Assembly (NCBI GenBank): GCA_964609855.1
Contig: CAZSTB010000001.1
Coordinates: forward strand, 27,854 to 91,853
DNA length: 64,000 nt
DNA from: an uncultured Bdellovibrionales bacterium
GTDB lineage: Bacteria; Patescibacteriota; Minisyncoccia; Moranbacterales; GWC2-37-73
Direction of reading: 5' to 3'
Shown in pieces: positions 43,220 through 60,635 of the stretch; position 1 is the first letter of the stretch, and every line of letters begins with the position of its first letter. The notes beneath the pieces were generated by a model. The model did no database searches. It worked only from the letters and a program-made list of their open reading frames with translations, and was not told the DNA's origin. The position numbers were made by a program, and so were the translations under genes.

Positions 43220-43291
43220 TCCGGCGTAGCGCAGCGGTAGCGCAGTTGACTGTTAATCAATTGGTCGTAGGTTCGAATCCTACCGCCGGAG
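43220..43291 (+). tRNA. tRNA-Asn (anticodon GTT)
   Basis: Acceptor TCCGGCG/CGCCGGA. Anticodon loop CTGTTAA. T-arm GTAGG-TTCGAAT-CCTAC. Discriminator G. Confidence 0.85.
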
Positions 43292-44848
43292 CACAATAGG
43301 ATGAAGAGATGCGAAAGCGTCTCTTTTTCCTTTTATGGAGCCACTTTCAGCGAGTTCGAAAGTACTATTTATCCTAGGCATCCATTCTGACATGAATTCA
43401 AACCCTAAGGTGTAGTTTGGCCTGATTTTATCGGCATTTAATGTAAGGTTCGAAAAAATATGACTTAAGAGTAGTCTTTTTTCTTCAGTGCTTGCTTCTG
43501 GGCATTTGTAGATTTCAGATGCCTTTAGTGCGAGTTCATGAATAGCAAGTCCAGCTTCATAATAGGCAGCACGAGACTCTCCTAATTTTTTGAGAGCTAT
43601 CACTGCATCTTCTTTTTCTTTTGCAGATTCATCCATCATCTTTTGACAGAGTTCCATAGACATCTTTCCATCAAGCTTGTCCCTGTAGGCATTTTCATAG
43701 CGTTTGTCAGCGGTTTGAATGGTTCTTGTAAATTCATTTCTTCTTAGTGTATTGTGTTCTATCTCGTCGTCGTGACTTTCTCTCAATGCCTTCTCGAGAA
43801 TCTTGAGCACACGCTCATTCTTTGGGGCTACATTGTCAAATAGAGGAAAGAGTTGATCTTCTACCTTCTCTTGCCTGAGATAGGTCCTCTGGCTACATTT
43901 TTTGTAATGATTGCAATGGCCATACCAGTGCCCTTTTTGGGTTTCCCAAGTAATTAACCCACCACATTCGTCGCACTGAATTTTTGCCTTGAATACGGGC
44001 AGATGCTTTTTAAAGCTAGGGTTGGCTCTTTTGCGACTCATTATTCCTTGAACTGCGTCAAATAAGTCTTTGGATATGAGCGGTTCATGCTTACCTGGAC
44101 TCTGCACTCCATTCCAAGTAATGATGCCATAATAATAAGGATCGCTGAGTAGTTGATGTATTCTACTTATGACAATTTTTCCACCAGCAACACTACGAAG
44201 TCCCTCTTTAGTTATTGTCTCAGTGATTGCCTTAAGGGAATAATTCCCTGTAGCGTAAAGCTCAAATGTTCGCGCCATAAGTGGACCCATAACTTCATCA
44301 ATAACATGACTCTTGCGACCCTTTTCTCCAATAGTTTTATAACCAGCCTTGGCTCTTTGAGGAAATTCACCTTGAGCTATTTTTTCTTTTTGACCTTTCT
44401 TTACCTCTTCAGAAAGATTATCGATATAAAATCTCGCAATTGCAACTTTCATATTCCAAACAAGACTTTCATGAGCCTTTGTGTTTTTGTTTAATATAAA
44501 TGATTCTTTTACAAAATGTATTTCGCGTTCAGTGTTCTCAGTAATCCAATCACTTATTATGCCGGCATCTTTTGGGCTACGAGTAAGCCTATCTATTTTT
44601 TCACAAAGTATCGTTAATACATTGTTTTTTGAAGCATAATCAAGCATTTCATTGAAAGTTTTTCGTATTTGTTTTCCACTTGCTGATTCAGATATTTTGA
44701 AAATCTTCTTAATAGCAATCTCGTTTTTTTGTCCGTAGGCTTCCAATAGTGTCACTTGAGCATCTAACGAATACCCAGCATCTTCTTGTTCCTTGGATGA
44801 AACGCGGGCATAGATCACCGCTTTGTTGTTTTTGTTGGCATTTTCCAT
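43280..44848 (-). CDS. large serine recombinase (resolvase/invertase N-terminal catalytic domain + recombinase domain + zinc ribbon)
   Basis: AVIYARVSSKEQ catalytic-serine motif near the N-terminus. C-terminal Cys cluster (CDECGG...CNHYKKC). Stop overlaps the 3' end of tRNA-Asn. Confidence 0.85.
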   Translation of the reverse strand: MENANKNNKAVIYARVSSKEQEDAGYSLDAQVTLLEAYGQKNEIAIKKIFKISESASGKQIRKTFNEMLDYASKNNVLTILCEKIDRLTRSPKDAGIISDWITENTEREIHFVKESFILNKNTKAHESLVWNMKVAIARFYIDNLSEEVKKGQKEKIAQGEFPQRAKAGYKTIGEKGRKSHVIDEVMGPLMARTFELYATGNYSLKAITETITKEGLRSVAGGKIVISRIHQLLSDPYYYGIITWNGVQSPGKHEPLISKDLFDAVQGIMSRKRANPSFKKHLPVFKAKIQCDECGGLITWETQKGHWYGHCNHYKKCSQRTYLRQEKVEDQLFPLFDNVAPKNERVLKILEKALRESHDDEIEHNTLRRNEFTRTIQTADKRYENAYRDKLDGKMSMELCQKMMDESAKEKEDAVIALKKLGESRAAYYEAGLAIHELALKASEIYKCPEASTEEKRLLLSHIFSNLTLNADKIRPNYTLGFEFMSEWMPRINSTFELAESGSIKGKRDAFASLHPIVLRR

Positions 44849-45042
44849 ATGATTTTGATTTTATAAAGACGCTAAAGGGACGGTTCTGACTTACCCAACT
44901 AACCACGAGGATTGTCGGCAGAACCGCCCCTTTAGGGCGACAATATAAAGTCGTGGTATTTATAATTGGGTAAGTATCTACATTATACATTTTCTGCAGC
45001 AAAATAAAAGCCAAAAAGTAAACCAAAGTAAACAGATGATGG

Positions 45043-45483
45043 TTAACTTTCTCTTTTGTGACCTTGAATTTCTCTAAGTATCCTGTGAGCTTGTTGTTTT
45101 GCTGTTTTTGGGCTAAATCCCGCCAGCACCGCTGCTCTAGTAGCGTTTCCCCTTGAACTAATAAATCCATAAAGAAAAGAGAGTCTTTTCATTGATGGGG
45201 CATTAAACATAGGTAGTTGCTTTAATGAGCTATCATTCATTATCTCATCTGCTATATAATGAAATAATAGTCCGTGAGGCTTATGAAAAATTAAATCTCT
45301 TATAAATAGCGCTTCTTGCAATGTAAATTTAGGTGAAGGATTTCGTTTTTTATAATTCACGTTATCTGAAAGAAGATTAAGTATATTTATAAGTTCCTCG
45401 GTAGCAATAATGGCGCGTTTTTTCCTCATTTTTTTTATTTTCATTAGTGGTTTTTTATTGTACATATTGATCGATAACCTCAT
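45043..45483 (-). CDS. phage terminase small subunit-like HTH protein (Terminase_2/P27-like), tentative
   Basis: GNATRAAVLAGFSPKTAKQQAHRIL resembles the conserved HTH of small terminase subunits (GNATqAAi.AGYS.kTA.sqasrLL). Confidence 0.4.
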   Translation of the reverse strand: MRLSINMYNKKPLMKIKKMRKKRAIIATEELINILNLLSDNVNYKKRNPSPKFTLQEALFIRDLIFHKPHGLLFHYIADEIMNDSSLKQLPMFNAPSMKRLSFLYGFISSRGNATRAAVLAGFSPKTAKQQAHRILREIQGHKRES

Positions 45484-45664
45484 CTAATAATTTTGAAATA
45501 GTTATCTCTTGAAGTTTTGCTATCTCTTTTAATTTTTCATATCTGGTTTTTTCAATTCGTTCTTGTTGAGTGATCCTTTTTGGTTTTAATCTTTTCGAAA
45601 GGATTTTAAGTGCATTTTTATTGGCTTTCTTAGCTATTTTTTCCTGTTGAGTGAAATCAATCAT
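45455..45664 (-). CDS. small basic hypothetical protein (69 aa)
   Basis: Overlaps the upstream gene by 29 nt on the same strand. Lys-rich, likely DNA-binding. Confidence 0.3.
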   Translation of the reverse strand: MIDFTQQEKIAKKANKNALKILSKRLKPKRITQQERIEKTRYEKLKEIAKLQEITISKLLDEVIDQYVQ

Positions 45665-45960
45665 ATTTTTGTTACCAATTACTATTTAGAACTGCTTTTG
45701 AGGCATCATATAACTCTTTATGACTTATAGAGAGAATAGAGTATTAAGTCAGTTGTGCGGGCGCACAAATTTTTGTCTGAGAATACTTTACCCAAGTTAA
45801 TTATTGATGGACAAATGACGCACCCCGTTGAGAATCAGTCACTCAGAGCGGGGGTTTGGATTTATCCACCAATAATGTTTGCAGCCGGTTTTTTATTCCA
45901 GGGGATTCGCTGACCGCCCCTGCTCTATAATTTGTAAATGTTAGGCTTAAAAAGCCTGAG

Positions 45961-46149
45961 TTAATTCTTTTCAGGAATCACTTCAGGATTTTCAATAGTA
46001 GTCATTCTCCGGTATTCAATTTTTGCAAGCAAGTCAAAATAAGCAACAAGATCGCTCATGATTTTGCGCGCATCGCTGATTGTTATTTCTCGTCCGTATT
46101 CCTCAGCCACAATCTGCTGAAACTCAATTATTGTTTCTTCTTTAATCAT
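45961..46149 (-). CDS. small hypothetical protein (62 aa)
   Basis: Followed by aggcttaaaaagcct hairpin (45943-45957). Confidence 0.3.
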   Translation of the reverse strand: MIKEETIIEFQQIVAEEYGREITISDARKIMSDLVAYFDLLAKIEYRRMTTIENPEVIPEKN

Positions 46150-46232
46150 AAAATCGCATTAGGATATTCCTAATGCGATTATCGATCTTTATGAAGTTTT
46201 AATATAATACACGCAAGTTTAACTTACGTGAA

Positions 46233-47072
46233 TTATGAAAAGGAGGCTTCTTTTAGGGCCTTTTTGAATCTCGCAATGTATGTTCCGACCTTCTGATAAT
46301 CACCGACCCATCCCATTTTCTTGGAAATTTCTTTGTAAGTCAGTTCTTGTTTGTACCTGAGATCATAAACTTTTTTATAGTTATTGAACTCTTTGTAAGT
46401 TTTGAATCTTTTAAATCCAGTAGGTTTTATGCTGTAGCTTTTTGTATTTTTTGAATCAAGCACTAATACGTCATTGTTTGGAAAAGATATTTTGCCTGTA
46501 TTCTTTTTCAGGTATCCAAGTATATTTCTGTGCTTTTCAATGTTTTTCCATTCCTTTGCTACTTGTTCTAGCGTAGTATCAGAATAAATTTCTATTTTTA
46601 ATCTAAGTAGGCCACCATCATTTTCAGTTCGATAATCTAATTGAGATGGGATAATAGGGTCTATATTGTCGTTATTTAAAAATGTGAAGTATTCAATTGC
46701 ATTTTTCCACCTCGGGTGGATATTAAACTTTACTAATATGTTTAAAATTGATGAGTCGTACTGTATCTTTATTTTTTCATTTTCACAAACTTTTTTAAGA
46801 TATTTGATGCAGTTTTCTTCACTTGTAAATCCTTGAGGCGGTATGCTGAAGGTTTCTCTTAAGTTATTGACTTCATCTATGAATTTGTCATTTGCAATTA
46901 AAAACAAAAATTTTTCCTTGTTGACTGTAAACTTATTGATTTTTGGTCGAATTGAATAGGGATCTTGAAATAAATCAAACTTCCATTGTTCAAAACAACC
47001 AGCATCTCTATATTTAATTTTTGTTAACATTTTCATAGTATAAAGTGTAGCTCTATATTGTAAATCTTTCAA
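46233..47072 (-). CDS. hypothetical protein (279 aa) with C-terminal HTH-like segment (LTYKEISKKMG)
   Basis: Long ORF on the island's minus strand. Sigma-R4/LuxR-like HTH at the C-terminus. Confidence 0.45.
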   Translation of the reverse strand: MKDLQYRATLYTMKMLTKIKYRDAGCFEQWKFDLFQDPYSIRPKINKFTVNKEKFLFLIANDKFIDEVNNLRETFSIPPQGFTSEENCIKYLKKVCENEKIKIQYDSSILNILVKFNIHPRWKNAIEYFTFLNNDNIDPIIPSQLDYRTENDGGLLRLKIEIYSDTTLEQVAKEWKNIEKHRNILGYLKKNTGKISFPNNDVLVLDSKNTKSYSIKPTGFKRFKTYKEFNNYKKVYDLRYKQELTYKEISKKMGWVGDYQKVGTYIARFKKALKEASFS

Positions 47073-47144
47073 TTATTTATAATCTATGATAATCTGTAGT
47101 TACAATTAAATGCCTAAACTTCACGGATTCCCGCGGAGCATGGC

Positions 47145-47284
47145 AAAAAATACCGACTAAAGTATATCAAGCTCTCCATCCAGAGCACTTTAGTCGGTCG
47201 TGCGTCGAAAGGCGTGCGGGTGTCCGCAAGGACATCGCTGGTGGGGAGCTTTATGTTTTCCACCAAAAAAAATCCGACTAAAGA
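47145..47284. other. GC-rich structured element flanked by 18-bp direct repeats (aaaaaataccgactaaag / aaaaaaaatccgactaaag); candidate ncRNA or MITE
   Basis: Inverted copy actttagtcgg at 47187-47197 forms an 11-bp stem with 47151-47161. GNRA hairpin tgtcc-GCAA-ggaca at 47221-47234. A spurious 77-aa ORF overlaps it. Confidence 0.35.
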
Positions 47285-47407
47285 AATGAAAAAAAGAATA
47301 AACTTATCTCGCATAGTATTTTTCGCTATGGCTTCTTTCGAAGTCATGTTTACAACCTTTTAAGGTTGTTTTTTTGTCGTTAATTATTTTTACTTAATAA
47401 AATTATT

Positions 47408-47830
47408 ATGAAAAATGCAATCAAAAGAATCTTTCAAGGAAGGCTCGCGCGAAAACACTATTTCTTAGCTCACATTTATATCCTTTTTCCAATTGCATTT
47501 ATTGGTGGAGTCATGGGTTCATTATTAGGTCTTAATAGTTTCGAAATGGGTATTTTCATTGGTTCGGTGCTTTTTCCAATTATTATAATACCGGTTACAG
47601 TTAGAAGACTTCATGATTTAGGCTTAAGCGGATGGGTTTTACCTATATTTTTCCTTGTCCCTTACCTTGGAAATAATTTTTCACTTCAAATCTTAGTAGG
47701 ACTACTTTTTTCAGGATATTTATTTTTTTATCAAGGCAAACAGGACGCTAATAAGTATGGCAAACCAGCACAAAAGGACAGAAAATTCTGGGATGCAGTT
47801 TTAAATAGAAACATTGCTAATGTTAATTGA
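47408..47830 (+). CDS. DUF805-family inner-membrane protein
   Basis: RRLHDLGLSGW motif diagnostic of DUF805/YhaH-like proteins, multi-TM. Confidence 0.6.
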   Translation: MKNAIKRIFQGRLARKHYFLAHIYILFPIAFIGGVMGSLLGLNSFEMGIFIGSVLFPIIIIPVTVRRLHDLGLSGWVLPIFFLVPYLGNNFSLQILVGLLFSGYLFFYQGKQDANKYGKPAQKDRKFWDAVLNRNIANVN

Positions 47831-48122
47831 TATGAAAGCACTAAATACGTTCAAATACATAATTGCAATAATCGCTATAATTTTTATTTTTTTCAGTTGG
47901 AAAATATCGCTATTATTATTTGTAATTGCATCCATCGCACACGCTTTTCCATTGGGTCCATACATGCTTTTAAATACGCTGGCAGGTTATTCATTGATTG
48001 GTGGCATACTTTATTTGTTTGTGAGCTGGAAAATAGGCGCGGTGCTAATTATATGCTCAATCTTGATTGTAAAGTTCAGGGCTTGGACTAATAGTGTGAA
48101 TGTTGATTACTACAAGAAGTAA
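47814..48122 (+). CDS. small membrane protein (102 aa), hypothetical
   Basis: Three hydrophobic helices. 17-nt overlap with the upstream gene. Confidence 0.35.
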   Translation: MLMLIDMKALNTFKYIIAIIAIIFIFFSWKISLLLFVIASIAHAFPLGPYMLLNTLAGYSLIGGILYLFVSWKIGAVLIICSILIVKFRAWTNSVNVDYYKK

Positions 48123-48147
48123 ATAAAACGATAATAAGATACGAAAT

Positions 48148-48441
48148 ATGCCAAAATTTTTAGCAACAACCTGTCCTCACTGCAAGGGAGAATTTGAAAA
48201 GAAAGTCCTGGATCTTATTTGTGGCGGAGTTAAATACTCATCCGATGAGTACAATGTGAGTTCAGAGGGTACATACACGCGCAAGACGCCTCATCTTCAG
48301 AGATGCCCCTTGTGCGACCACTTGATGAACGAGGAAGACTGGAAGCAGGTGAAACAACGATATAGATACGAGGATGATCCTAAGCCGATTCAAACCAAGT
48401 GGCAAAACTTTAAATGGTGGAGTAAACGCTTTTTACCGTGA
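48148..48441 (+). CDS. zinc-ribbon protein (97 aa), hypothetical
   Basis: CPHC...(50 aa)...CPLC metal-binding pairs. Confidence 0.45.
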   Translation: MPKFLATTCPHCKGEFEKKVLDLICGGVKYSSDEYNVSSEGTYTRKTPHLQRCPLCDHLMNEEDWKQVKQRYRYEDDPKPIQTKWQNFKWWSKRFLP

Positions 48442-48476
48442 TTTTTCTTCTAATAAGGAGTTGATTGAAGTGATAT

Positions 48477-48506
48477 TTGACATTATACGCATTCAATGCG
48501 TATAAT
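48477..48506 (+). promoter_or_regulatory. consensus sigma70 promoter (TTGACA-18-TATAAT) with embedded perfect 11-1-11 palindrome ttatacgcatt-c-aatgcgtataa (48483-48505); candidate auto-operator; drives leaderless transcript starting at ATG 48513
   Basis: -35 at 48477-48482, -10 at 48501-48506. ATG 7 nt downstream of the -10. The palindrome spans the spacer and the -10 box. Confidence 0.5.
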
Positions 48507-48512
48507 GTAGAA

Positions 48513-51500
48513 ATGAAATACAACATCGGAAAACTTATAAAAACAGAAAGAAAAAAGCATGGATGGGACCAGGCTGAATTGGTTCGTCGCCTGGGTGGGT
48601 CGATACGTCAGCAGGCTATCAGCGGTTGGGAGCGTGGTGCTTCTCGACCTACTCGCGAAACCATTCATCTTTTAAGTAGAGAATTTGAAATTGAAGAAAA
48701 AATCCTTTTAGAGAAAGCTGGGTACATAAGTGGAGTGGAAAGGATTCCCAGAAAACCAGTTAGACCACTGCTTACTACACTTCCAATTGCTGATCTTACT
48801 CCTTATCAATTCGAACAATTTTCAGCGGATTTAGCTTCTTATTTGAACCCGGAAAAAGGTGTTTCAATTGCTCGCTATGGGTCCACTGGCCATAAGCAGG
48901 AAGGTGCTGATATTATAGTTACAAAAAGCGGTCGCAAGAAAGCTATTTATCAATGCAAGAGAGTTAACCAATTTGGACCAGCCGCAATAAAAAAAGCAGT
49001 TGATGATACAAATCTCGTTGCAGAAAATTATTATTTGCTTCTTACGCGGGTAGCCACTCCTCAAGCTCGCGAGGAAATCCAAAAATATGAAAAATGGATA
49101 CTTTGGGATATTGAAGATATTTCACAACGAGTTCGTGAATTGCCAGTAGATAAAGCTCTTCGCTTAGTTGAAACATATTTCCCAGGTGGTTGGAGGGAAC
49201 AATTTCTTGGTATTGATGATTCCGGACCGTGGACTTCTGTTGAGGATTTTTATCGTCGTTTTAATGGTGACCAAATCTTTTCACATACATGGGGGCTGGT
49301 TGGTCAAGAAAAAATTATTGATGAAATCAAACTTTTTTATGCGGATGCTCAGCAAAAATTAGGTGTTATATCAGGGAGAGGAGGCAGCGGAAAGACTCGT
49401 CTTTTGCGCGAGTTAGCGAAAATAGCTCAAGAGGATTTTGAATACAATGTTCGTTTTTTAGGTAATGGTCAAAAACCAACTTTAAAAAATTATGAGTTAT
49501 TGCGGGATATTTCTAAACTTTTAATTATAGTAGATGATGCTCATGAGCGTTCAGATATTGCTCAAATCATTGATGGTATCCATGGAGCACAACCTGAAGC
49601 AAAAATTATTTTAGCACTACGTCCATATGGCTTTTCTCAACTATCTTCCGATTTGCGCCGTATAGGTGTGCATCCCTCTGAATTTCCAAGCTGGGAAATT
49701 CAGGAAATAAAATTTCAAGATGCAGAAAAATTAACAAAAGAAGTGCTAGGTGACAAGGCTGACTCTAGAATAGTTTCACGTATAGCTCATATGACAAAAG
49801 ATTGCCCATTGTTGACGGTTGTTGGTGCTGGCTTATTTAAGCGCGGTGAATTAGATGTTCTACAGTTGGAATCTGACGATCAAATAAAAGAAGAAATCTT
49901 ATCCAGATTTAGAGATACATTTATTGAAAGTTCAAGCCAAGGAGATTCAACCATATTAAATACCGTGCTAAATACCATTTCCGCGCTGCAACCTTTTCCG
50001 CTTAATGATCCTGATTTTCGCAAAACATTGGAAAAACTGTCCAATAAACATTGGGATGAGTTGATACCATATATTCGAAGATTAGAAGAAAAGGGAATTT
50101 TATTAAAAAGAGGTAATGTAGTCAGAATCGTTCCGGATTTATTAGGAGATGTTATATTAGCTGAAGCGTGTTTTGATAACAGTGGAAGTACCGGTTACAT
50201 AGAAAGGCTTTTTGCTGATTTGTCTGATATTCCTTTGCAGCATCTCATTATAAATACTGCCCGAGTTGACTGGCAGGTAAATACATCCAAGAGAGGACAA
50301 TCTCTTGTTGGATTTCTTTGGCCTAAAATTATTTCTGAATTTGAATCATCGGACTGGGGTGGTCGCTTAGTAATAATGAAGCTTTTGAAAAAAGTTGCTT
50401 TTTTTCAGCCAGAACAAACGCTATCTCTTGTAAATATAGCAATGACAGAAATTTCCGAAGATTCTGATGAAAAAACACGAGATGATATTTTTTCTTTGAA
50501 TAATGAGCATGTTATGCACGCTATTCCAGAAGTATTGAAACAAGTTGCTTATAATTTCGATTTTTTGAAAGAAGCTGCTGATTTACTTTGGGAGCTCGCC
50601 AGAAAAGATGATAGAAGAACAAATTCTTATCCAGATCATCCTATTCGTATTCTTCAGGATTTGGCTTCTTATTCACCATGGAAACCAGCTTATTTCAATG
50701 AGAAATTAGCAGATATTGCAATAAACTGGCTAAACGAAGAAAAAAAATCAATCCATTCTCCATTTGATATTCTTGAAACATTGCTTGCTACTGAAAGTTC
50801 AGAAACTTTATCTGAAGGACCTACGCTTACATTTAGGCCTTTTGCAGTAAGATTAGAGGCTGTACAGAAGATTAGAGATTCTATTTTGCAGGTGGCTTTT
50901 TTGCAGGCAAACACAAAAGAAATTGGAAAAGCAGCTCGAGCAGTGGATGCTATAAGTAAGGGAATAAGTTACCCCATGGGCATGTTTAATAGGATTCCTT
51001 CTGAGGCGGAGCGTTCTCATTGGACTCCTTATTTTGTAAAAACTATTTCAGAGCTTGGAGAGCTTGCAAGGATGCCAGAATTAGATCCTACTATTGCACT
51101 TGAAATACGCAAGGCTTTGCAATGGCACAGGATGTATTCTAAAACAGAAACAAAAAATGCTGCCCTGGAAGCGCTCAAAGGTATGCCAGAAGGAATTGAG
51201 CACCAAATGGCTTTAGCGCTCCACTCTGGCTGGGGAGATTTAGTTTTTGAAAGAATCCGTGATTTCAAATTAAGAGATGAGCGAAGAGAAGCTTGGTATG
51301 AGGAGTTAGCTGAAAATCTAGGTCGCACTTATTCTGATCAAGAAATTGCAGATCTGTTGGAAAGTCGTCTAAATGCACAAAAAGAAGTATCGGATAGTCA
51401 ATCGCATCCAGGTCCTTTCATGTGGGCGCTAGTAAAAGAAAACCCTTCTATTGGGGAAATTATCTGTGAGAAAGTTATGGAGAATAATGACTCAGTTTTT

Positions 51501-52616
51501 CTAGCTGTTCTTCCTATAGTGCTTTCGCAGATGATGGAAAATGATTCAGCGAAAAATATACTTGTAATCCGTAAGCTTGTTGCAACTGAAAATCTCTCTG
51601 TAATTCGTTCGGTCGTTCATGCTTTTGGATGGAATCGTGGTGGGCGAGACGAACTAAATGAGGAAGAATTTGATATTTTATGTGTATTGGCCAAACATTC
51701 AGATCAGCATATTCGAAGTTCTTTGATAAGAGTTGTTCATTATATTTCTTCTAAGCATCTTGATAAAGCAATAAAACTTGTTTCTCTTATTGAATTTGGA
51801 GATTCTTTACAGGTGGCAAGTGAAGTATTTTCCATTTTCGGAAAGCATGGCGTTATGAAGCTAGAGGACTTGGGTTCGGATGAAATTGAAAAAATATGGC
51901 AGCAATTAAAAATAGTTTCCTCCATTGATGATCATTCCATTATGGAGTTCCTATTCGAGGCATCAGAAAAAAATCCAGATAAAGTGTTAGAATTGCTCAA
52001 GGGACGGATTGAATATGGAGAAATGCATCCAGAAATTAAAGATTTTAATGAACTGCCGTTTCATTGGGATGGCAATTTTCGATTTCGTGAACATCCAAGC
52101 TTTAAACAGTTACTTAGAGAAATTCGTGATTGGATGGCCGAGAAGCCAGATTCTTGGGGGAGGATGATGGAAGGTGCAAAACTATTTCAAAATGTATCTG
52201 GAGAATTTGATGACATTGTTATTGGTGTACTTGAAGAAGTTTTATATTCTGGAACAGATGGTCAACTAGAAGCTGTCAGCTACATATTGCGTGAAGCGCC
52301 AAAAAATTTGATATTGGATAATCCTGCTTTTGTAGAAAGAGTGTTGGAGATAGCTAATAATCGAGGAGAGGAGAAGTTGAGAAACATCAGTTTCAGTCTT
52401 ATATCCGCTGTAGAGAATGGCGTAAGGAGTGGAACACTAGGAGAGCCTTTTCAGGCAGATGTTGAGCAAAAAGAAAAAGCATTAAGGATTGCGGAGTCCC
52501 TTGTCTCTGGTACTTTGGTGGAAAAATTTTACCGAACACTTGCAGAATCAGCCGAGAGAAACATGAATTGGCATGCCGAAAGTAATGAGAAAATGCAGGA
52601 CTCTCGCGAATGGTAA
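48513..52616 (+). CDS. Avs/bNACHT-like antiphage STAND NTPase: N-terminal HTH(XRE) + Mrr-like PD-(D/E)xK nuclease + P-loop STAND NTPase + about 900-aa helical repeat sensor region (about 1367 aa)
   Basis: HTH: IGKLIKTERKKHGWDQAELVRRLGGSIRQQAISGWERG. Mrr_cat-like: FEQFSADL...GADIIV...YQCKRV. Walker A GRGGSGKTRLL and Walker B LLIIVDDAHE. Long all-helical C-terminus. ORF track start 48477 is a TTG inside the -35 box; ATG 48513 preferred. Confidence 0.7.
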   Translation: MKYNIGKLIKTERKKHGWDQAELVRRLGGSIRQQAISGWERGASRPTRETIHLLSREFEIEEKILLEKAGYISGVERIPRKPVRPLLTTLPIADLTPYQFEQFSADLASYLNPEKGVSIARYGSTGHKQEGADIIVTKSGRKKAIYQCKRVNQFGPAAIKKAVDDTNLVAENYYLLLTRVATPQAREEIQKYEKWILWDIEDISQRVRELPVDKALRLVETYFPGGWREQFLGIDDSGPWTSVEDFYRRFNGDQIFSHTWGLVGQEKIIDEIKLFYADAQQKLGVISGRGGSGKTRLLRELAKIAQEDFEYNVRFLGNGQKPTLKNYELLRDISKLLIIVDDAHERSDIAQIIDGIHGAQPEAKIILALRPYGFSQLSSDLRRIGVHPSEFPSWEIQEIKFQDAEKLTKEVLGDKADSRIVSRIAHMTKDCPLLTVVGAGLFKRGELDVLQLESDDQIKEEILSRFRDTFIESSSQGDSTILNTVLNTISALQPFPLNDPDFRKTLEKLSNKHWDELIPYIRRLEEKGILLKRGNVVRIVPDLLGDVILAEACFDNSGSTGYIERLFADLSDIPLQHLIINTARVDWQVNTSKRGQSLVGFLWPKIISEFESSDWGGRLVIMKLLKKVAFFQPEQTLSLVNIAMTEISEDSDEKTRDDIFSLNNEHVMHAIPEVLKQVAYNFDFLKEAADLLWELARKDDRRTNSYPDHPIRILQDLASYSPWKPAYFNEKLADIAINWLNEEKKSIHSPFDILETLLATESSETLSEGPTLTFRPFAVRLEAVQKIRDSILQVAFLQANTKEIGKAARAVDAISKGISYPMGMFNRIPSEAERSHWTPYFVKTISELGELARMPELDPTIALEIRKALQWHRMYSKTETKNAALEALKGMPEGIEHQMALALHSGWGDLVFERIRDFKLRDERREAWYEELAENLGRTYSDQEIADLLESRLNAQKEVSDSQSHPGPFMWALVKENPSIGEIICEKVMENNDSVFLAVLPIVLSQMMENDSAKNILVIRKLVATENLSVIRSVVHAFGWNRGGRDELNEEEFDILCVLAKHSDQHIRSSLIRVVHYISSKHLDKAIKLVSLIEFGDSLQVASEVFSIFGKHGVMKLEDLGSDEIEKIWQQLKIVSSIDDHSIMEFLFEASEKNPDKVLELLKGRIEYGEMHPEIKDFNELPFHWDGNFRFREHPSFKQLLREIRDWMAEKPDSWGRMMEGAKLFQNVSGEFDDIVIGVLEEVLYSGTDGQLEAVSYILREAPKNLILDNPAFVERVLEIANNRGEEKLRNISFSLISAVENGVRSGTLGEPFQADVEQKEKALRIAESLVSGTLVEKFYRTLAESAERNMNWHAESNEKMQDSREW

Positions 52617-52649
52617 TAATCAATTTTTTAGAAGTTAAAAAAATATAAA

Positions 52650-53393
52650 ATGAATGGATACAAAATTTTAGCAATAGACGAAACTGGTAAAGCAAGTTTA
52701 ACGCATAAATCAAAAAATTTTATACTTTCAGGAATAATTATCCCGGAAAGCTTTAAGCCGCAGTTGAAAAAAATGATGTGCAAATTAAAAATAAAACATT
52801 TCAATGATGAAGATCTGGTGTTTCATTGTAGAGATATGCTTCGAAAAAAAGGACCATTTGCTTGTTTAAGAGGAGATAAAAATAAAGAAATGCTTTTTTG
52901 GTCTGATTTTATAAGTATCCTAAATTCAGATAAAATTTCGTTGGCCTTCGTTATTACTGATAAGGAAAATGCAAAAAAATTAAATTGGAATGAAATAGCG
53001 ATACTAAGAAAAGCTTATAAAAAGATGCTTGAGCAATTTGTTGTGCAACATTTAAACCATAAAACAAACGGAAAAATAATAGTCGAATCTGATTCATCGC
53101 AAGACAAATTTTTGATTGAAGCCAATGCGAGGTTGCAGAGTGCGGGCATTCCTTCGGAAGGAATTAGTGGTTCAGATTATCGTGCTAAAATTACGTCATT
53201 AAGTTTAGTTAATAAACTAAATTTCGATGACGATATACAAATAGCAGATAGCTTAGCACTGATGGCGGATACGGTTTATGAAATGAAGATTGGCCGTCAT
53301 TCAAGGCGTGTTAATAAAGTTCAGCTCATGATGAAAAGACTCATAGAAAGAAAAATGAAAAATAAATTAGGTATTTTTGAGATTCTTTCATAA
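52650..53393 (+). CDS. DUF3800-family protein (defense-island associated)
   Basis: N-terminal YKILAIDETGK...NFILSGIII resembles the DUF3800 (IyIDESG...FvlaGvi) motif. ESDSSQDKFLIEAN central motif. Confidence 0.45.
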   Translation: MNGYKILAIDETGKASLTHKSKNFILSGIIIPESFKPQLKKMMCKLKIKHFNDEDLVFHCRDMLRKKGPFACLRGDKNKEMLFWSDFISILNSDKISLAFVITDKENAKKLNWNEIAILRKAYKKMLEQFVVQHLNHKTNGKIIVESDSSQDKFLIEANARLQSAGIPSEGISGSDYRAKITSLSLVNKLNFDDDIQIADSLALMADTVYEMKIGRHSRRVNKVQLMMKRLIERKMKNKLGIFEILS

Positions 53394-53397
53394 CAAA

Positions 53398-53516
53398 AGA
53401 GTCGGCCATGGCTATCCGCGCTTTACCGACTCTTATATAATATACTACGCTTTTTTTGAAAAAAAATAACAAAAAAATCGGCCATGGCTATCCGCGCATA
53501 TACCGACTTCTTATAC
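53398..53516. repeat. two roughly 38-bp GC-rich direct repeats, each an internal hairpin (agagtcgg-N20-ccgactct), spaced 77 bp
   Basis: tcggccatggctatccgcgc identical at 53402-53421 and 53479-53498. Each copy is preceded by an A-run. Shares the ataccgact core with the 47145 element. Confidence 0.6.
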
Positions 53517-53661
53517 CTGATCCTACACCTTTTAGAAAAAAATGTCAAGTTTATAAAATTTGGCCTTAAAAAGGCAATTTCTTTGCGAAGAATGAATACT
53601 TTTTTAAAAATGTTTGTAAAATCGAAGTTAACTCCTCGAAAACTTGGAATTTCAATTTTGC

Positions 53662-53690
53662 TTGACATTTTTGCCAAAAAATGCTATCAT
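53662..53690 (+). promoter_or_regulatory. consensus sigma70 promoter TTGACA-17-TATCAT upstream of the high-GC two-gene cassette
   Basis: -35 at 53662-53667, -10 at 53685-53690. About 105 nt upstream of ATG 53796, which has a GGAGGAAG SD. Confidence 0.5.
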
Positions 53691-53795
53691 TTCTTGATTA
53701 TTTCATATAATCACCCCTGTCATTTTTACAACAGAATAATTGTGTTTTTTAGTTTTTTAACCGAAGTCAAATAACCCACAGAGGAGGAAGTCGCA

Positions 53796-55052
53796 ATGAA
53801 AAAGAGTCAGGTTAATGTTTTTGATAAAGGAACGCCGGATTACGTGATAGCTCACGCAGTCAGGCAGCAGAAAAGAGGACGTCGCCCTTCAATGGCCTTT
53901 CTTGGTGAAAGGAATCCGGAGAAGGCTTTGGCTCTAGCAAAACGTTTCAAGGGCTGCAACATGGTAGTTTCCCAGGATGGTGAAAAGCAATGGAAGGTTA
54001 CGTTTAACGGAGCCATCGCTGCACAGATCCACATGGACTACCAGAACCAGGCTGACAAGGTTGTTCTCATGAACGACGACAAGCGCTGCCAGCGGTTCGT
54101 CAAAGAGCTCGTCCTCTCGCATGCAGTACAGTTCGTTATGCAGCGGGGACCGATGCCGGCAGCACTTCTAAGGGTTGTTCCTGAACGCGCGCTGGAAGAA
54201 TATACCTGCGAAAACCTGATAAGCTTTGGCAAGATTCCCAGTAGTATTTTCGCGATGAGCGACAAAACCCTGGGCTCATATCTTTCCCAGTTCGTCACCG
54301 TTGTTGAAGGAAAGTATTCCAGCCCCGAACAAATGCTCACCTGCCTGTTGATGGAAATCTACGAGAAGAAAGGTATCCTTCTGGGTATCCGGGACGCTCA
54401 GTGGTCACGCATGGACGATGGTCATATCGTCGCTACGTTCGAAATAAAAAGCGAACAAACCTTCAAGGTGTGGAATGGTAACGACGCAAGCAACATGTTT
54501 CATTTCGTCGCACCTTACCACCCGTCGAGGAACGGCAAGAAAAGCGTCTGCCTGATCAACGGCAGCACCGATTATTACATCAGGGGAAGCGAGGCCGGAA
54601 TCAGAAGAGTGCTTTCTCCTGAAGAATCGAGACCTGTGAAGGAAGGATTGTTTCTTTCTTCTACCTGGTCAAAAATCAACCATCCGTTCTACGCCGAGGG
54701 TAAGACCTTGGGCATCGAGTTTTCGGCCGTGCTCTGCATGTCGAAAACCGGCTACCAGACGCTCTACGAGTTACTGCTTGCAGCAATGAATCAGGACAAT
54801 CTGTTTGTAGCGGTCAGTGGAGGGTTTGGCTCTCCTTACGATTATGCACAGAACGTCCTGAGTCGCAAAGGCATCCGTTCGCCTGCAGGCAAACAAGGGG
54901 CTCACGAAGTTCGTGGCTCCGAAGAGGACTGCGTCTGGGAACACGAGGTTCTCAAGTCGGAAGGCGTTCTGGACAAAAGTGTCGCTCCGGACTGGTTTTA
55001 CCACGAAGGGTGGCTCAAGATTTTCGAAGGAGAAGAAAAGAAGTTCAACTAA
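53796..55052 (+). CDS. hypothetical protein (418 aa) in about 50% GC cassette; no recognisable domain
   Basis: Strong SD (GAGGAGGAAGTCGCAATG). GC content far above the window average. Antisense ORFs in the same region are judged artefacts of the high GC. Confidence 0.6.
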   Translation: MKKSQVNVFDKGTPDYVIAHAVRQQKRGRRPSMAFLGERNPEKALALAKRFKGCNMVVSQDGEKQWKVTFNGAIAAQIHMDYQNQADKVVLMNDDKRCQRFVKELVLSHAVQFVMQRGPMPAALLRVVPERALEEYTCENLISFGKIPSSIFAMSDKTLGSYLSQFVTVVEGKYSSPEQMLTCLLMEIYEKKGILLGIRDAQWSRMDDGHIVATFEIKSEQTFKVWNGNDASNMFHFVAPYHPSRNGKKSVCLINGSTDYYIRGSEAGIRRVLSPEESRPVKEGLFLSSTWSKINHPFYAEGKTLGIEFSAVLCMSKTGYQTLYELLLAAMNQDNLFVAVSGGFGSPYDYAQNVLSRKGIRSPAGKQGAHEVRGSEEDCVWEHEVLKSEGVLDKSVAPDWFYHEGWLKIFEGEEKKFN

Positions 55053-55081
55053 ATATCAACTTCAAATGGAGGTATAGGAAC

Positions 55082-56074
55082 ATGACAAGCACACAGAAGG
55101 TTTTCGTCCCCGAAGAGCACTTCCGGGAAGTTCCCGACAGTTTTTCGGGAGAATCCAACATCGTTAGTGTCGAGTCCCGAGTTTGCTCCAACGGCATCAT
55201 CCTTGATAACCTCAAGGAAGTCGAGTGCGCACTCAGGATCCACAACGGGGAAATGCTTCTTACTCCGGTGTCTAGCACGTTTACCAATATGGATCTGATC
55301 GGCAATATGTTCAAGTCGGCCGGCCCCATGGGAGCAGGACTCGCAGCTATGGCCAGTCAAACGCTGATGAAAGGCAAGGACTTTGTCGGCACGATGATGG
55401 CGGAAGCGAGATGTAACCTTGCCACTACTGGCAAATACCATCGCAGTTACGACTACGACGCCATGGGAACGAATTTCCTGAAAACCTCGGTAACTGTTGC
55501 CAGGGTGGAAAGCAAGTTCGTTCTTAATATCAGTGGCTCCCGGGTCGAAACAGATCTGAGTGTACTCCTTGGGAAAAGGGTTGCACTTTCGAGCGCGGTT
55601 ATCTACGCAAATCTGAGTGTTGTCGACGAATGGTGGTATAATCTGAACCTGAAAAAGGTTCTCGGCGACATTGGCTATCTTGATCCCGATTTCGAGCCTA
55701 CCTGGCCGCAACTTGCGCAGGTTCTGGCCTCTGAAGGTCACCAATTCCGGTTACCGATTCTGAAGGATGGTGTTCCTCTCGATCTCTTGATCAGCGTGGA
55801 TTATTCCAGCTATCGGTACCCTTCGGAAGAAGACAAGCGGGCAAGTAAGGACCTGACCAGAGCAATCGGCAGTAACGTTGCCGGCGCCACCTGGAACGCC
55901 TATCGCCACCAACGCGAGGAAGCAACCAATGAAGACAGAAAGCTTCAGATAACTGTTGCACATCACGGCAGGGGCTATGGTTCCTCGCCGGTAATCGATC
56001 CCGCGTTCACTGATGCTTTGGCAACAGTGGCAAGGGAGATCGAAGAAAAGCTCATCAAGAAAGTAGTCGCTTAA
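55082..56074 (+). CDS. hypothetical protein (331 aa), second gene of the high-GC cassette
   Basis: ATG 55082 preceded by AAATGGAGGTATAGG SD (the ORF-track start 55010 overlaps the upstream gene). Followed by a strong terminator. Confidence 0.55.
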   Translation: MTSTQKVFVPEEHFREVPDSFSGESNIVSVESRVCSNGIILDNLKEVECALRIHNGEMLLTPVSSTFTNMDLIGNMFKSAGPMGAGLAAMASQTLMKGKDFVGTMMAEARCNLATTGKYHRSYDYDAMGTNFLKTSVTVARVESKFVLNISGSRVETDLSVLLGKRVALSSAVIYANLSVVDEWWYNLNLKKVLGDIGYLDPDFEPTWPQLAQVLASEGHQFRLPILKDGVPLDLLISVDYSSYRYPSEEDKRASKDLTRAIGSNVAGATWNAYRHQREEATNEDRKLQITVAHHGRGYGSSPVIDPAFTDALATVAREIEEKLIKKVVA

Positions 56075-56107
56075 TCTTACGTCGTTGAATCAACGAAGCA
56101 CCAATAA

Positions 56108-56144
56108 AAGACCCACAAGCATAATTGCGCTTGTGGGTCTTTTC
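56108..56144 (+). terminator. rho-independent terminator (agacccacaagc-ataattgc-gcttgtgggtct + ttt)
   Basis: 12-bp GC-rich stem after the cassette. Confidence 0.7.
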
Positions 56145-56412
56145 AATTTCTAATAACAGATTGAAGTCAATTCCCTTATTTGCCTTACTGCAATATCGGG
56201 ATCTGGAAACATCCTTTCCCATTCCAAAGTTCGGAACGTGCGTACCCAAGCGAGCAAGCTCAAAAAATACACCATTTATTGGTGTATTTTTGCTTTACCT
56301 TAACTATAATGGTAGTTCTGAAATAGCACTTTTCAATTCTTTGCTCTTAGTTATCTTGTATGAAAATATGATATACTATAATCAATGATAAATCTTAAAG
56401 GATAAGTATTAT

Positions 56413-56835
56413 ATGAAAATGAAGCCTTGGCAAATCAATTCGTTACTTATATTGGGATATGTTGGCATTGTGTATCTTATGCCAAAAGAATATAAGCAAA
56501 TAGTCGGATATGTAATTACTATCCCAAGTGCAATTTGGGTATTTTTTGATGCTAAAAAACTTGATATTAAAAAATACAAAGCTAGCAATATAGGAACTGC
56601 CTCACCATTCTGGGTTGCATTTTTCGTTGCCTTTTTTTGGATACTTGCAATGCCCATATACATTAGCTGGAGACAAAAAATTATTAATGGAAAATGTCCT
56701 TTAAAAGAAGAAATAGTGGCAAGTTCTCAAAAAAAATCTAAAAAATCCTGGACTTCGTTTTTTATTACATTATTAGCAGTAATTGTTGTGGTAGTTTCAG
56801 TTATATTTTATATAAATTATTACTATTCTAAATAA
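56413..56835 (+). CDS. small membrane protein (140 aa, 4 TM), hypothetical
   Basis: Hydrophobic helices. AT-rich (native-like) composition. Confidence 0.45.
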   Translation: MKMKPWQINSLLILGYVGIVYLMPKEYKQIVGYVITIPSAIWVFFDAKKLDIKKYKASNIGTASPFWVAFFVAFFWILAMPIYISWRQKIINGKCPLKEEIVASSQKKSKKSWTSFFITLLAVIVVVVSVIFYINYYYSK

Positions 56836-57014
56836 GCTGTTTGCATAAATAAAGGCAGTGATTGCATATCCAATTCAATCTTTGTTAGGTTTAAACTTCT
56901 GAACACATCAGCTATTGAGAGCACTTGACAAAAATATAGCATTATGCTATATTTTTTTGTTAGTTAAAAAATAGTAGTTCATATCATCACAGAATTATCA
57001 AGAGGAGGTTCGTC

Positions 57015-57299
57015 ATGGAACACAATTTTCCTGCAAATGCATTAGGCTTAAAACGAGGTTCCATCATAGTTAGCGCTCATCCGCAAGTTGAAGAACAGCT
57101 TGGGGTGAAAGTTGGAGATTCGCTGCCAATTGGCTTCGATGGCACCTATGTTTGCTGTGCTGGATTCACCTGGTCAATCGAACAACTTGTGAAGGAGATT
57201 AGATATGGGTTATGGACCATCAACAACAAATGCGTAGACTTATCTTCAGAAGAAGCTCGACATGAGTTCCGTTCAATTGTCGAGAGAACTGCAGAGTAA
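57015..57299 (+). CDS. hypothetical protein (94 aa)
   Basis: AGAGGAGG SD 6 nt upstream of ATG. Followed by terminator at 57354-57388. Confidence 0.45.
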   Translation: MEHNFPANALGLKRGSIIVSAHPQVEEQLGVKVGDSLPIGFDGTYVCCAGFTWSIEQLVKEIRYGLWTINNKCVDLSSEEARHEFRSIVERTAE

Positions 57300-57353
57300 G
57301 AAAAGGTAAAAAAATTTATAGAGCTGCATGGCATCGTCCATTAGAAAAGCTAA

Positions 57354-57388
57354 ATCCGCACGCTTAAGCAGGGTGCGGTTTTTTTTAT
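57354..57388 (+). terminator. rho-independent terminator (ccgcac-loop-gtgcgg + T9)
   Basis: Stem at 57356-57361/57373-57378 followed by tttttttt. Confidence 0.7.
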
Positions 57389-57625
57389 CCCAATTAAATT
57401 TAAATTCTTCAAATGCTTTTTGAAAGCTTACCCCACTCAATAGTTCTAAGTTTATTTATCAGAGGGCTCATAATAGGGAGGATGCTAACTTCGGCCTCTT
57501 TTTTCTGTCTATATCTAAATCTAATGTAAGCTGGACAAGATCTTTAAAATCTGCTACAATTGATGTATAGTAAAGACGGGTAATGCCGTCTTTTTATTTA
57601 TTTAAGTCAATGATAAACAAACAAA

Positions 57626-58135
57626 ATGGAAAACGAAACAGTAGTAGCAAGCGAACTGAGTAATCAACCTGTCCAAAGCCAAAGTCCAGTTGTTGTGGAA
57701 AAGAAGCACGACTTGGCATGGGTTATTGTGCATATTTGGGTTAAGGGTTTAATTGTTTCTTTTCCTGCATCTATCATTTTGATGATAATTTCAGGAATTG
57801 TGGTGGTAAGTATGGGATTTGATATGACAGTACTTGCACAGAGAGCGGCAACCGACCCAGAATTTGCGAAACAATTCACAATGATAAATCAATTATTTGG
57901 CTTTATTTTAATTCCCGTATCTTATTTTGGTCTTAAATGGGGTTGCAAAACAGCACTTCAAAAAACATCTATTGATGAAAAAGATTTTGGAAAAATTGGT
58001 TATTGGGTTGGTATTATCCCGATACTGTTTTCAATTCTGAACAGAGATTTAATGCTCGCTGCTTTGATATTTGGTATTTTCCTAACACCAAAACTCGTTA
58101 AAAAATGGCTTACACAATTTAACCAAGTAGCATAA
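57626..58135 (+). CDS. membrane protein (169 aa), hypothetical
   Basis: Four predicted TM helices. Confidence 0.45.
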   Translation: MENETVVASELSNQPVQSQSPVVVEKKHDLAWVIVHIWVKGLIVSFPASIILMIISGIVVVSMGFDMTVLAQRAATDPEFAKQFTMINQLFGFILIPVSYFGLKWGCKTALQKTSIDEKDFGKIGYWVGIIPILFSILNRDLMLAALIFGIFLTPKLVKKWLTQFNQVA

Positions 58136-58137
58136 TT

Positions 58138-58629
58138 ATGGTTCAAATAATCCTCAGTTACTTAGTTCTCGGCATTCTATCTTTTAATTTGGTGAAAGTG
58201 CTGAGGAAATACCTCTTGGATTTAGGCGAAAAGGCACAAAAAATAGGTGTTACAATTTTTATAATTGCAATCGCCTTTTTGCTTATCGTGTTCAAAATTT
58301 CTTACGCCAGAGATGCTATCGTTATTCTTCAATTTTTTGTTTTCCTTTATGATGCATACAGAGGGGAATTATATAAAAAACCAGAGAAAAACTTTTATGA
58401 TCTCACTTTCAATGAGAAATTTTATATGACCGCCTATAATTTGGTTTTTGTAAGTAGTTGCTTTATATACGCTCTCTATACATTTCCCTCGCGTCTTTCT
58501 GAGGATATGCAACCACTTGGTAATATAATAGTTATTTTTGTTATCGTATACTTGAGTTTTATAGATAAGAGAAAAAAAGGTAAATCCCTGATGTTTTACG
58601 GAAACAAGAAGAAAACAGTTTCAATTTAA
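58138..58629 (+). CDS. membrane protein (163 aa), hypothetical
   Basis: Starts 3 nt after the previous stop. 4 TM. Confidence 0.45.
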   Translation: MVQIILSYLVLGILSFNLVKVLRKYLLDLGEKAQKIGVTIFIIAIAFLLIVFKISYARDAIVILQFFVFLYDAYRGELYKKPEKNFYDLTFNEKFYMTAYNLVFVSSCFIYALYTFPSRLSEDMQPLGNIIVIFVIVYLSFIDKRKKGKSLMFYGNKKKTVSI

Positions 58630-58721
58630 TATTGCAAAGTGAAACTATTGAAAAATAAAGTCAATTCTTCCGTGAATTTAAGCGATTTCAGTTCCGAATA
58701 TAGCTGGTTGGGGGGGGCAAA

Positions 58722-58750
58722 TAAAAAGGGCTTAATAAAGCCTTTTTTGT
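58722..58750 (+). terminator. rho-independent terminator (aaaagggctt-aata-aagccttttt)
   Basis: Preceded by an unusual G8 homopolymer at 58707-58717. Confidence 0.55.
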
Positions 58751-59276: not shown

Positions 59277-59312
59277 CTTTCCGCCTAGGCGGACATCAAG
59301 GAGGAGGACACG

Positions 59313-60611: not shown

Positions 60612-60635
60612 GCACGAAGTATTTTCACAACCGAA

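Follow-up and report, generated by a model that had tools for sequence, protein, structure and literature searches.

A serine integrase gene that ends within tRNA-Asn, and a divergent LOOT RNA, at the left junction of a probable genomic island in a Patescibacteria bacterium

Can a large serine recombinase (LSR) use a tRNA gene as its integration site? In 2014, serine integrases were described as having no known targets among tRNA genes, and according to a review of mobilizable elements (PMC5704250) they insert within, and disrupt, protein-coding genes. The question is raised by a locus in a 64,000-nt stretch of DNA (the window) from an uncultured bacterium of the candidate phyla radiation (CPR)/Patescibacteria (GenBank assembly GCA_964609855.1, contig CAZSTB010000001.1), where the gene for an LSR runs into the 3′ end of an intact tRNA-Asn gene. 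In our reading, a genomic island of about 22.8 kb has inserted into the tRNA-Asn 3′ end of this bacterium, which comes from the Rifle aquifer, and the locus comprises the left junction (attL) of the island and its conserved module for integration and regulation; we put the probability of this reading at roughly three in four. An initial annotation of the same DNA had taken the locus for the attL side of either an integrative element or a remnant of a prophage. The integrative element stands, but the prophage remnant is unsupported, because a search for phage structural genes that had been suggested as a check returned no capsid, portal, large-terminase or tail gene in Pfam and PHROGs scans covering 43–64 kb.

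The anatomy of the junction is clear. Ordinary host genes, dnaG and rpoD, lie 5′ of tRNA-Asn. On the opposite strand, the TAG stop codon of the LSR open reading frame (ORF) is the reverse complement of CTA at 43280–43282, in the 3′ strand of the T-stem, and the LSR gene therefore overlaps the tRNA gene by 13 nt (Table 1). This overlap had been noticed in the initial annotation, and it is borne out by ARAGORN, Rfam and the ORF coordinates. The four further minus-strand genes reported beyond the LSR gene were likewise recovered (146, 69, 62 and 279 amino acids), as was the switch of strand at about 47.1 kb, from where all plausible genes are on the plus strand up to the window end. A change of gene style beyond the switch, to consensus promoters, strong ribosome binding sites and GC-rich terminators, is weakly borne out, with 63 promoter-like sites against 46.8 +/- 6.2 in shuffled sequence and 28 terminator-like sites against 16.9 +/- 4.0. 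The point at which the strands switch, overlooked in the earlier work, is a LOOT RNA.

To judge the recombinase, we compared it with protein families and with its own homologues. The catalytic domain matches Pfam Resolvase (PF00239, E = 7.4e-25, residues 10–161) and is followed by a Recombinase domain (PF07508, E = 5.9e-16, residues 189–272) and by a Zn_ribbon_recom match (PF13408, E = 2.4e-4, residues 286–332) that, at 21.9 bits, is below the curated cut-off of 25.3. Of the four cysteines in this putative zinc ribbon, the family alignment shows no variation at C292 and C295 and hardly any at C312 and C318. The putative zinc ribbon, which the initial annotation had placed at the C-terminus, lies in the middle of the protein. 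The YARVSS catalytic motif was also found as described, and R15 and S17 are invariant across 20 homologues. All residues invariant in this 20-sequence alignment are kept in the window LSR, and the best PHROGs match is phrog_95, annotated ‘integrase’ (E = 7e-68). On these grounds the gene is predicted to encode an intact integrase, with recombination of attP and attB sites as its candidate function. Its NCBIfam matches, among them the XisF and CcrB models, are all far below their cut-offs, and it is distantly similar to the structures of the TP901-1 and A118 integrases (E about 6e-6 to 8e-6). No tyrosine recombinase was found in the part of the island that lies within the window.

At least 3,728 homologues of the LSR at E <= 1e-10 were found among 8,000 candidates scored. 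The closest among the matches listed are 57–70% identical to the window LSR, and nearly all of the named ones belong to Patescibacteria/CPR. A scan that took one genome per species yielded 79 loci (best identity 66%), in 72 of which the LSR stop is defined; three contigs end at the integrase gene. The LSR gene overlaps or abuts the 3′ end of an intact, convergent tRNA gene in 38 of these 72 loci, the usual overlap lengths being 13, 28–40 or 61 nt. The tRNAs concerned are 22 Asn, 12 Gln, 2 Asp, 1 Arg and 1 scored as Glu; in this last locus (L068) a tRNA-Ser is also present at the LSR end and the stop is uncertain.

In 13 more loci, the LSR end adjoins a group I intron motif, GATATAGTC(C). Rfam reports a group I intron in all four of those that were scanned, and the 3′ half of a tRNA-Asn lies downstream of the motif in all five that were inspected. 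Because the GATGATATAGTCC-type sequence is the S element of a group I intron, the tRNA-Asn gene of these loci is read as interrupted in its anticodon loop by such an intron; many CPR tRNA-Asn genes beside these LSRs have this arrangement and were for that reason missed by ARAGORN. Instances lie at 2912–3236 in L005, 11699–11978 in L031, 11488–11760 in L077 and 1663–1954 in L050. The same identification of the conserved sequence ruled out the idea that loci without a recognized tRNA are free attP sites. The LSR gene accordingly lies in a tRNA gene in at least 51 of the 72 loci, or in 51 of the 69 where the flanking sequence suffices.

Mapped onto a rough neighbour-joining tree, the tRNA targets go with the clades of the LSR (Asn, Gln and a small group of Asp/Arg), and this clade-wise distribution fits site-specific integrases that have occasionally switched target. 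Taken together, the sequences indicate a large, tRNA-targeting LSR clade that resides mostly in Patescibacteria/CPR. A grouping of the recombinase with chromosomal invertases, which had been named as an outcome that would speak against an island, was not observed; the protein groups with the tRNA-abutting integrases.

A second copy of the tRNA-Asn 3′ end had been proposed as the mark of the right boundary. None is present inside the window at up to three mismatches, nor is there any informative 9-mer; an attR within the window was therefore rejected, and the right boundary must lie outside. In the public contig L003, which comes from the same series of samples, the last 2,588 nt of the window recur without a difference and are followed by another 2,367 nt. 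In this extension, about 2.1 kb past the window end, is a direct copy, GAATCCTGCCGTTGGAGCAGAA, that agrees with the tRNA end, GAATCCTACCGCCGGAGCACAA, at 18 of 22 positions. Three of the differences fall inside stems, where all three would still pair as G-U, and directly 3′ of the copy is a hairpin with a T-run, such as one would look for after a tRNA gene. All other matches of equal stringency in 2.6 Mb of control sequence are tRNA-Asn 3′ ends at the ends of LSR genes, and shuffles of the 23-kb search space produced a match of this grade in 1 of 2000 cases. Given its divergence, support for this candidate attR is statistical rather than exact. It supports an island of about 22.8 kb between tRNA-Asn and the candidate site, and it agrees with the earlier statement that the cargo extends to at least the window end. 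We do not claim a longer tRNA remnant at this position; inclusion of a D-loop-like stretch lifts the alignment score from about 28 to 33.5, and the maximum in shuffles was 29.5.

Flanking repeats that match at 19 of 20 positions were found in two other LSR loci, L040 and L025, which would delimit islands of about 10.9 and 8.4 kb. In the window island and in both of these, the identity starts in the T-loop and ends a few bases past the tRNA. The T-loop is one of the classic sublocations where the identity of tRNA islands begins. The other loci are mostly without a repeat within the 10 kb available, and islands of more than 10 kb therefore appear to be usual.

These features are consistent with the following mechanism. 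The LSR would recombine the attP site of the element with an attB site formed by the tRNA gene from the T-loop to its 3′ end. The attP site would duplicate some 20 nt from the 3′ end of the tRNA, so that an intact tRNA-Asn would be regenerated at attL and a displaced, diverged 3′ fragment would be left at attR. Read on the other strand, the same tRNA-like stretch would encode the last codons and the stop of the LSR. The crossover would fall within the 22-nt repeat; its T-loop side is favoured because the element would then always supply the LSR stop (CTA in the T-stem), and the attR copy reads CTG at this position, which gives no stop. An unoccupied site would read as the tRNA-Asn body joined to ...GGAGCAGAACGTCAAGAAGACACC, and the junction of an excised circle as ...GCAGACGGATGAATCCT joined to ACCGCCGGAGCACAATAGGATG. 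One public assembly contig (Logan contig L001) spans exactly 43263–47176 and the neighbouring contig ends at 43245. We rejected such assembly breaks as evidence for excision, because the complete tRNA forms a repeat node in the graph of the metagenome.

Comparison with relatives, which had also been suggested as a check, places the island at a variable site. The rpoD protein of the window clusters at >=90% identity with a Rifle-aquifer ‘ACD’ protein, and the relative L091 (AMFJ01002842.1) is syntenic with the window through dnaG and rpoD at 69–79% nucleotide identity. The tRNA-Asn of L091 (4597–4669) is 100% identical to that of the window over 74 nt. No recombinase lies beside it, and none of the island cargo is present in the 10 kb after it. 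A relative without the LSR and the cargo was thus found, but its tRNA-Asn is inverted with respect to rpoD, with the 3′ end facing rpoD and unrelated genes following, and the far flank is not comparable. By the evidence of L091, the site is variable and the island not universal. The inverted tRNA-Asn has brought part of the upstream region along (ACTGATTTTGTT is common to both), and the arrangement could be a trace of recombinase-mediated inversion. The order dnaG-rpoD-tRNA-Asn-LSR is repeated in six more distant genomes, whose neighbouring genes are unrelated apart from the LSR and the 62-amino-acid protein. This pattern fits repeated insertion into a conserved target better than an inherited fixed locus.

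The LSR would be the last gene of a minus-strand operon that begins with a variable gene for a helix-turn-helix (HTH) protein and continues with the 62-amino-acid protein, an Arc-like protein and a second HTH protein. Besides the LSR, the 62-amino-acid protein is the only widely conserved product of this module. Searches with tblastn found homologues in 41 related loci (44 listed, including the contigs of the window itself); these are upstream of the LSR gene, often immediately adjacent, and a cluster analysis places 28 of its 29 members on the same strand as the LSR. An attempt to assign a function by homology yielded no significant Pfam or PDB relative. Several serine integrases use small accessory factors that set the direction of recombination, and the size and position of the 62-amino-acid protein make it the leading candidate for such a directionality factor, or for a regulator.

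The remaining operon genes are less conserved. The small-terminase-like gene of the initial annotation does encode an HTH match, but the resemblance is restricted to 36 residues, in which residues 103–138 of the 146-amino-acid protein align with positions 8–42 of the 141 positions of the Terminase_2 profile (E = 3e-6). This protein is probably a DNA-binding regulator rather than a terminase, and its one homologue is encoded directly upstream of the LSR gene in L021. The 69-amino-acid protein has no Pfam match. The 279-amino-acid protein has neither a Pfam nor a PHROG match; its residues 230–268 resemble an NCBIfam SigM-subfamily model (E = 6e-4), and its homologue was found in L021 only. BLASTP detected no homology among the first operon genes of different loci.

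Between this operon and the cargo lies the LOOT RNA, whose name is drawn from Lentisphaerae, OD1, OP11 and Thermotogae. The window copy covers covariance-model positions 1–121 of 121, and its predicted fold has a z-score of -7.75. Rfam LOOT matches are present in five of nine related loci tested. A covariance model built from these matches and run on the 79 loci returned 26 matches, consisting of the window copy and 25 others in 23 of the loci. Twenty-four of the copies are on the element side (543 kb searched) and one is on the host side (492 kb), a distribution with p = 2.6e-6. LOOT is present in 22 of the 54 loci that have at least 5 kb of upstream sequence. In every mapped case the RNA heads the LSR operon; it is mostly divergent from the operon and faces the cargo, and five loci carry it immediately ahead of the operon and on the same strand.

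The structure of these RNAs extends beyond the Rfam model. The roughly 20 nt that follow the model are complementary to the apical part of helix P2 and finish in a U-run. The duplexes that tails form with their own LOOT average -28.1 kcal/mol, compared with -20.1 for cross-locus pairs of tail and LOOT. In a sequence-based alignment (A5) of 23 copies, the 19-bp tail helix is 89% paired, with 11 compensatory pairs, and its covariation equals that of the accepted LOOT helices P3 and P4. The tail helix shares its 5′ nucleotides with the short P2-upper hairpin in the Rfam model, which is conserved as well, and one column covaries with both alternative partners. Because the two conserved helices are mutually exclusive, and because one of them is terminator-like and lies directly upstream of an ORF, the RNA has the anatomy of a cis-acting switch; this architecture suggests a terminator/antiterminator device and not a free small RNA (sRNA). 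LOOT would head the cargo side of the element, most likely as a cis-acting leader of this type for a small membrane-protein gene and the cargo. It is typed in Rfam as a stand-alone sRNA gene with no context given, whereas in the present loci it accompanies a single family of integrative elements and has a 3′ extension that competes with part of the modelled structure. The accessible main text of the paper in which the motif was reported contains no discussion of its genomic context.

A second regulatory layer may exist in some copies. In 6 of 24 LOOT copies, including that of the window, the 5′ strand of helix P2 (47145–47162 in the window) is duplicated ahead of a start codon, an arrangement seen in about 1% of cross-locus controls. 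The 3′ strand of P2 could therefore also mask translation initiation. The start codon in the window belongs to a putative hydrophobic ORF of 25 amino acids (MKKRINLSRIVFFAMASFEVMFTTF), with an intrinsic-terminator-like hairpin (47352–47369) at its end, and the ORFs downstream of LOOT in other loci resemble, by eye, small membrane proteins. Together, the duplicate and the putative ORF could point to masking of translation or to a small toxin-like peptide. When the window copy was inspected by eye, no complementarity of LOOT to the att site, such as an RNA-guided process might call for, was seen.

These observations can be joined in a broader proposal that we advance tentatively, regarding it as possible rather than probable. 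The conserved LSR clade would constitute a major integrative system of CPR/Patescibacteria at tRNA 3′ ends, and LOOT would be its cis-acting sensor instead of a free-standing sRNA. The attP site would double as the replacement for the tRNA 3′ end and as the C-terminal coding sequence of the LSR. LOOT, either riboswitch-like or dependent on a factor, would set transcription of the cargo side or, in some elements, of the integrase operon, and in a subset of copies the start codon of the small membrane protein would additionally be masked.

Table 1. Positions of the features discussed, in window coordinates unless a contig is named
Feature	Position	Strand	Basis or remark
tRNA-Asn (GTT), integration target, intact at attL	43220..43292	+	ARAGORN; Rfam tRNA 74.1 bits
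attL core, T-loop to 4 nt past tRNA 3′ end	43275..43296	+	recurs at candidate attR
LSR (predicted integrase), 522 aa, stop codon inside tRNA T-stem	43280..44848	-	Pfam Resolvase, Recombinase, Zn_ribbon_recom; phrog_95
146-aa protein, C-terminal terminase-small-subunit-type HTH	45043..45483	-	Pfam Terminase_2; phrog_51 E 2e-8
69-aa protein, weak Arc-like (ribbon-helix-helix) repressor match	45455..45664	-	phrog_3180 E 1.5e-4
62-aa conserved LSR partner	45961..46149	-	tblastn homologues
279-aa first gene of integrase operon, weak C-terminal sigma-70 region-4-like HTH	46233..47072	-	NCBIfam SigM-subfamily
LOOT RNA (Rfam RF03000), divergent from integrase operon	47111..47236	+	84.7 bits vs gathering score 46.4
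LOOT 3′ tail, outside Rfam model, U-rich at its end	47237..47262	+	complementary to apical part of helix P2
Copy of LOOT helix P2 5′ strand, just before start codon	47266..47283	+	repeat family D4
Putative 25-aa hydrophobic ORF	47286..47363	+	read from sequence
Cargo region, continues past window end	47408..64000	+	Pfam, PHROGs, PADLOC, composition
DUF805 protein	47408-47830	+	Pfam
1379-aa HTH + Mrr_cat nuclease + STAND NTPase (nSTAND5) protein	48477-52616	+	Pfam
DUF3800 protein	52650-53393	+	Pfam
SPFH-like protein, 432 aa	59313-60611	+	phrog_11908 (phage family of unknown function) E 9e-33
NUDIX protein	62154-62705	+	Pfam
AAA_33 kinase-like protein	62724-63365	+	Pfam
Candidate attR	L003 4679-4700 = extended coordinate ~66091-66112, ~2.1 kb past window end	+	18/22 match
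LSR-family locus with replication, inovirus-like or restriction-modification module	L043 8709-9491		
LSR-family locus with such a module	L054 7480-8178		
LSR-family locus with such a module	L058 7391-9187		
LSR-family locus with such a module	L071 1235-7719		

The cargo is varied in both content and composition. Uniform composition at the site had been named as evidence against an insertion, and it was not found: G+C content is 0.32–0.33 at 45–48 kb, 0.49–0.52 at 54–56 and 59–61 kb and about 0.38 elsewhere. This unevenness marks the island as a mosaic that includes blocks of foreign-looking composition. The first GC-rich block (about 53800–56100) holds two ORFs of 418 and 354 amino acids without a family match, and the second (about 58900–61500) holds the SPFH-like protein and a lipoprotein-like ORF. 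The DUF3800 gene is followed directly by a tandem duplication of about 76 nt (82% identity, 53390–53542), which lies at the margin of the first block and may be a junction between modules. The nuclease-STAND NTPase protein and the DUF3800 protein hint at a role in defence, and PADLOC leaves the defence-like architecture of the former unassigned, with isolated domain matches in the cargo to HTH_VI, a CARF-associated AAA domain and PDC-S07. A perfect TTGACA-18-TATAAT promoter (48477–48506) overlaps the listed TTG start of the 1379-amino-acid protein, whose true start is therefore probably an ATG near 48513.

An intergenic repeat of about 110 nt (75–85% identity) follows terminator hairpins at 57356–57466 in the window, at about 64977–65086 and 65895–65995 in the extension provided by L003, and at 5918–6017 in L091; possible identities are a promoter cassette, a small RNA and a miniature mobile element. 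At 61959–62000, two perfect inverted copies of 20 nt, set 2 nt apart (AAACAACAAAAAGAGGCTTA / TAAGCCTCTTTTTGTTGTTT), probably form a bidirectional terminator, and related sequences are present at 57481–57511 and 63943–63973. Elements served by other members of the LSR family carry different genes. Some are inovirus-like, with a G2P-type Rep and Zot, some have a primase-polymerase and an AAA_25 helicase, and others carry an Eco57I-like restriction-modification enzyme with an SNF2/PLD helicase. The locus L058 contrasts in this respect with the window, in which neither a Prim-Pol nor a Rep was found.

As an island in a tRNA gene, the element is of a known kind, but it is an unusual version, with a serine rather than a tyrosine integrase and with an LSR gene that ends inside the regenerated tRNA. 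The order of resolvase domain (with the serine nucleophile), recombinase domain and putative zinc ribbon resembles that of the integrases of A118/LI, TP901-1, phiC31 and Bxb1, of SPbeta SprA and of the SCCmec Ccr proteins. The window LSR differs from these in that it targets a tRNA 3′ end and has its own stop codon within tRNA sequence, and the identity between attL and attR is about 20 nt here, compared with 2–12 nt for a typical serine integrase. Ccr has the 3′ end of a conserved gene (rlmH/orfX) as its integration site and leaves that gene active. With the tRNA islands of tyrosine integrases (the Islander signature; P4-like integrases) the locus shares an intact tRNA, an adjacent integrase, a displaced direct 3′ fragment, variable cargo and a tRNA 3′ end, supplied by the island, that restores the gene; the recombinase, however, is from the unrelated serine family. 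The accessible part of the description of tycheposons, elements of Prochlorococcus, reports 27 of 937 with a large serine in place of a tyrosine recombinase, and some PICI-like (phage-inducible chromosomal island) forms with terS (bioRxiv 10.1101/2020.12.28.424599). By that partial description they too are tRNA-associated, cargo-carrying integrative elements in a streamlined genome, but in another host phylum; their typical replication genes were not found in the window island, and the same part of the text describes no LOOT-like RNA.

Several observations weigh against an island, and they have to be set beside the rival explanations. The candidate attR is outside the window, on a short assembly contig, and is diverged at 4 of 22 positions; owing to this divergence, excision may no longer work. 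The gene beyond the candidate attR is not identifiable as a host gene, and because the L091 tRNA is inverted and followed by unrelated genes, the right boundary is unconfirmed by synteny. PADLOC finds no known defence system in the cargo. Three copies of the repeat of about 110 nt are in the island region, but a fourth is in L091, in DNA that belongs to no island, and part of the ‘cargo’ may therefore be long-resident or host-like. Finally, Pfam and PHROGs matched no virion, packaging, replication or transfer protein in 43–64 kb. A fixed or domesticated locus, in which a vertically inherited recombinase (for instance a site-specific invertase, or a remnant) is flanked by ordinary variable chromosome, would accommodate the diverged attR and the host-like repeat, as well as the dnaG-rpoD-tRNA-Asn-LSR order in six divergent genomes and the unusual conservation of the LSR family (57–70% identity across lineages among the matches listed); the inverted tRNA-Asn of L091 could even hint at inversion activity. 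We nevertheless consider such a locus unlikely, as the genes next to the LSR differ wholly from locus to locus save for the LSR itself and the 62-amino-acid protein, different LSR clades sit at different tRNAs, some members have replication or inovirus modules and 19/20 flanking repeats, the close relative L091 lacks the LSR, and the composition is patchy.

Less probable again is a prophage remnant, in which the integration end of a temperate phage would survive in decayed form with the terminase-like gene as a leftover of packaging. The PHROG integrase family of the LSR, the match of the 146-amino-acid protein to small-subunit terminase profiles, the match of the SPFH-like protein to a phage family, the inovirus-like prophages with G2P-type Rep and Zot that harbour other LSR-family members and the three close relatives in IMG/VR could all be cited for it. 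Yet the 20.7 kb of island inside the window contains no capsid, portal, large terminase, tail, Zot or Rep gene, the terminase match amounts to a 36-residue HTH, and those three relatives come from 2.9 million viral contigs, compared with at least 530 confirmed relatives in 185,579 representative genomes. The same terminase-like gene could be read differently, as the product by which a PICI-like phage satellite hijacks the packaging of a helper phage. With an integrase at one end and, next to it, small regulators together with a TerS-like HTH protein, the arrangement suits a satellite, and tycheposons include, in the accessible part of their description, tRNA-integrated PICI-like forms with terS. 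Here, however, TerS is represented by the HTH only, at the C-terminal end of the 146-amino-acid protein; the gene is present in one related locus only, and thus is no feature of the family; and no primase or replication module was found in the window. Typical phage satellites are also smaller than about 22.8 kb. We rate a satellite the least likely of these explanations, and retain an LSR-encoding genomic island in tRNA-Asn as the preferred one.

If the broader proposal made above is true, the working rule that only tyrosine integrases use tRNA genes would be overturned. A CPR-wide clade of tRNA-using serine integrases could mean that a sizeable part of the mobilome of these small-genome bacteria has been left unmapped. 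The link to the LSR gives the orphan LOOT RNA a genomic setting and a testable mechanism, and the 62-amino-acid protein becomes a directly testable candidate directionality factor for the LSR clade. Serine integrases are favoured engineering tools, and conserved, ever-present tRNA targets that are left intact could suit use as landing sites, an application that could extend to CPR bacteria that have so far been intractable.

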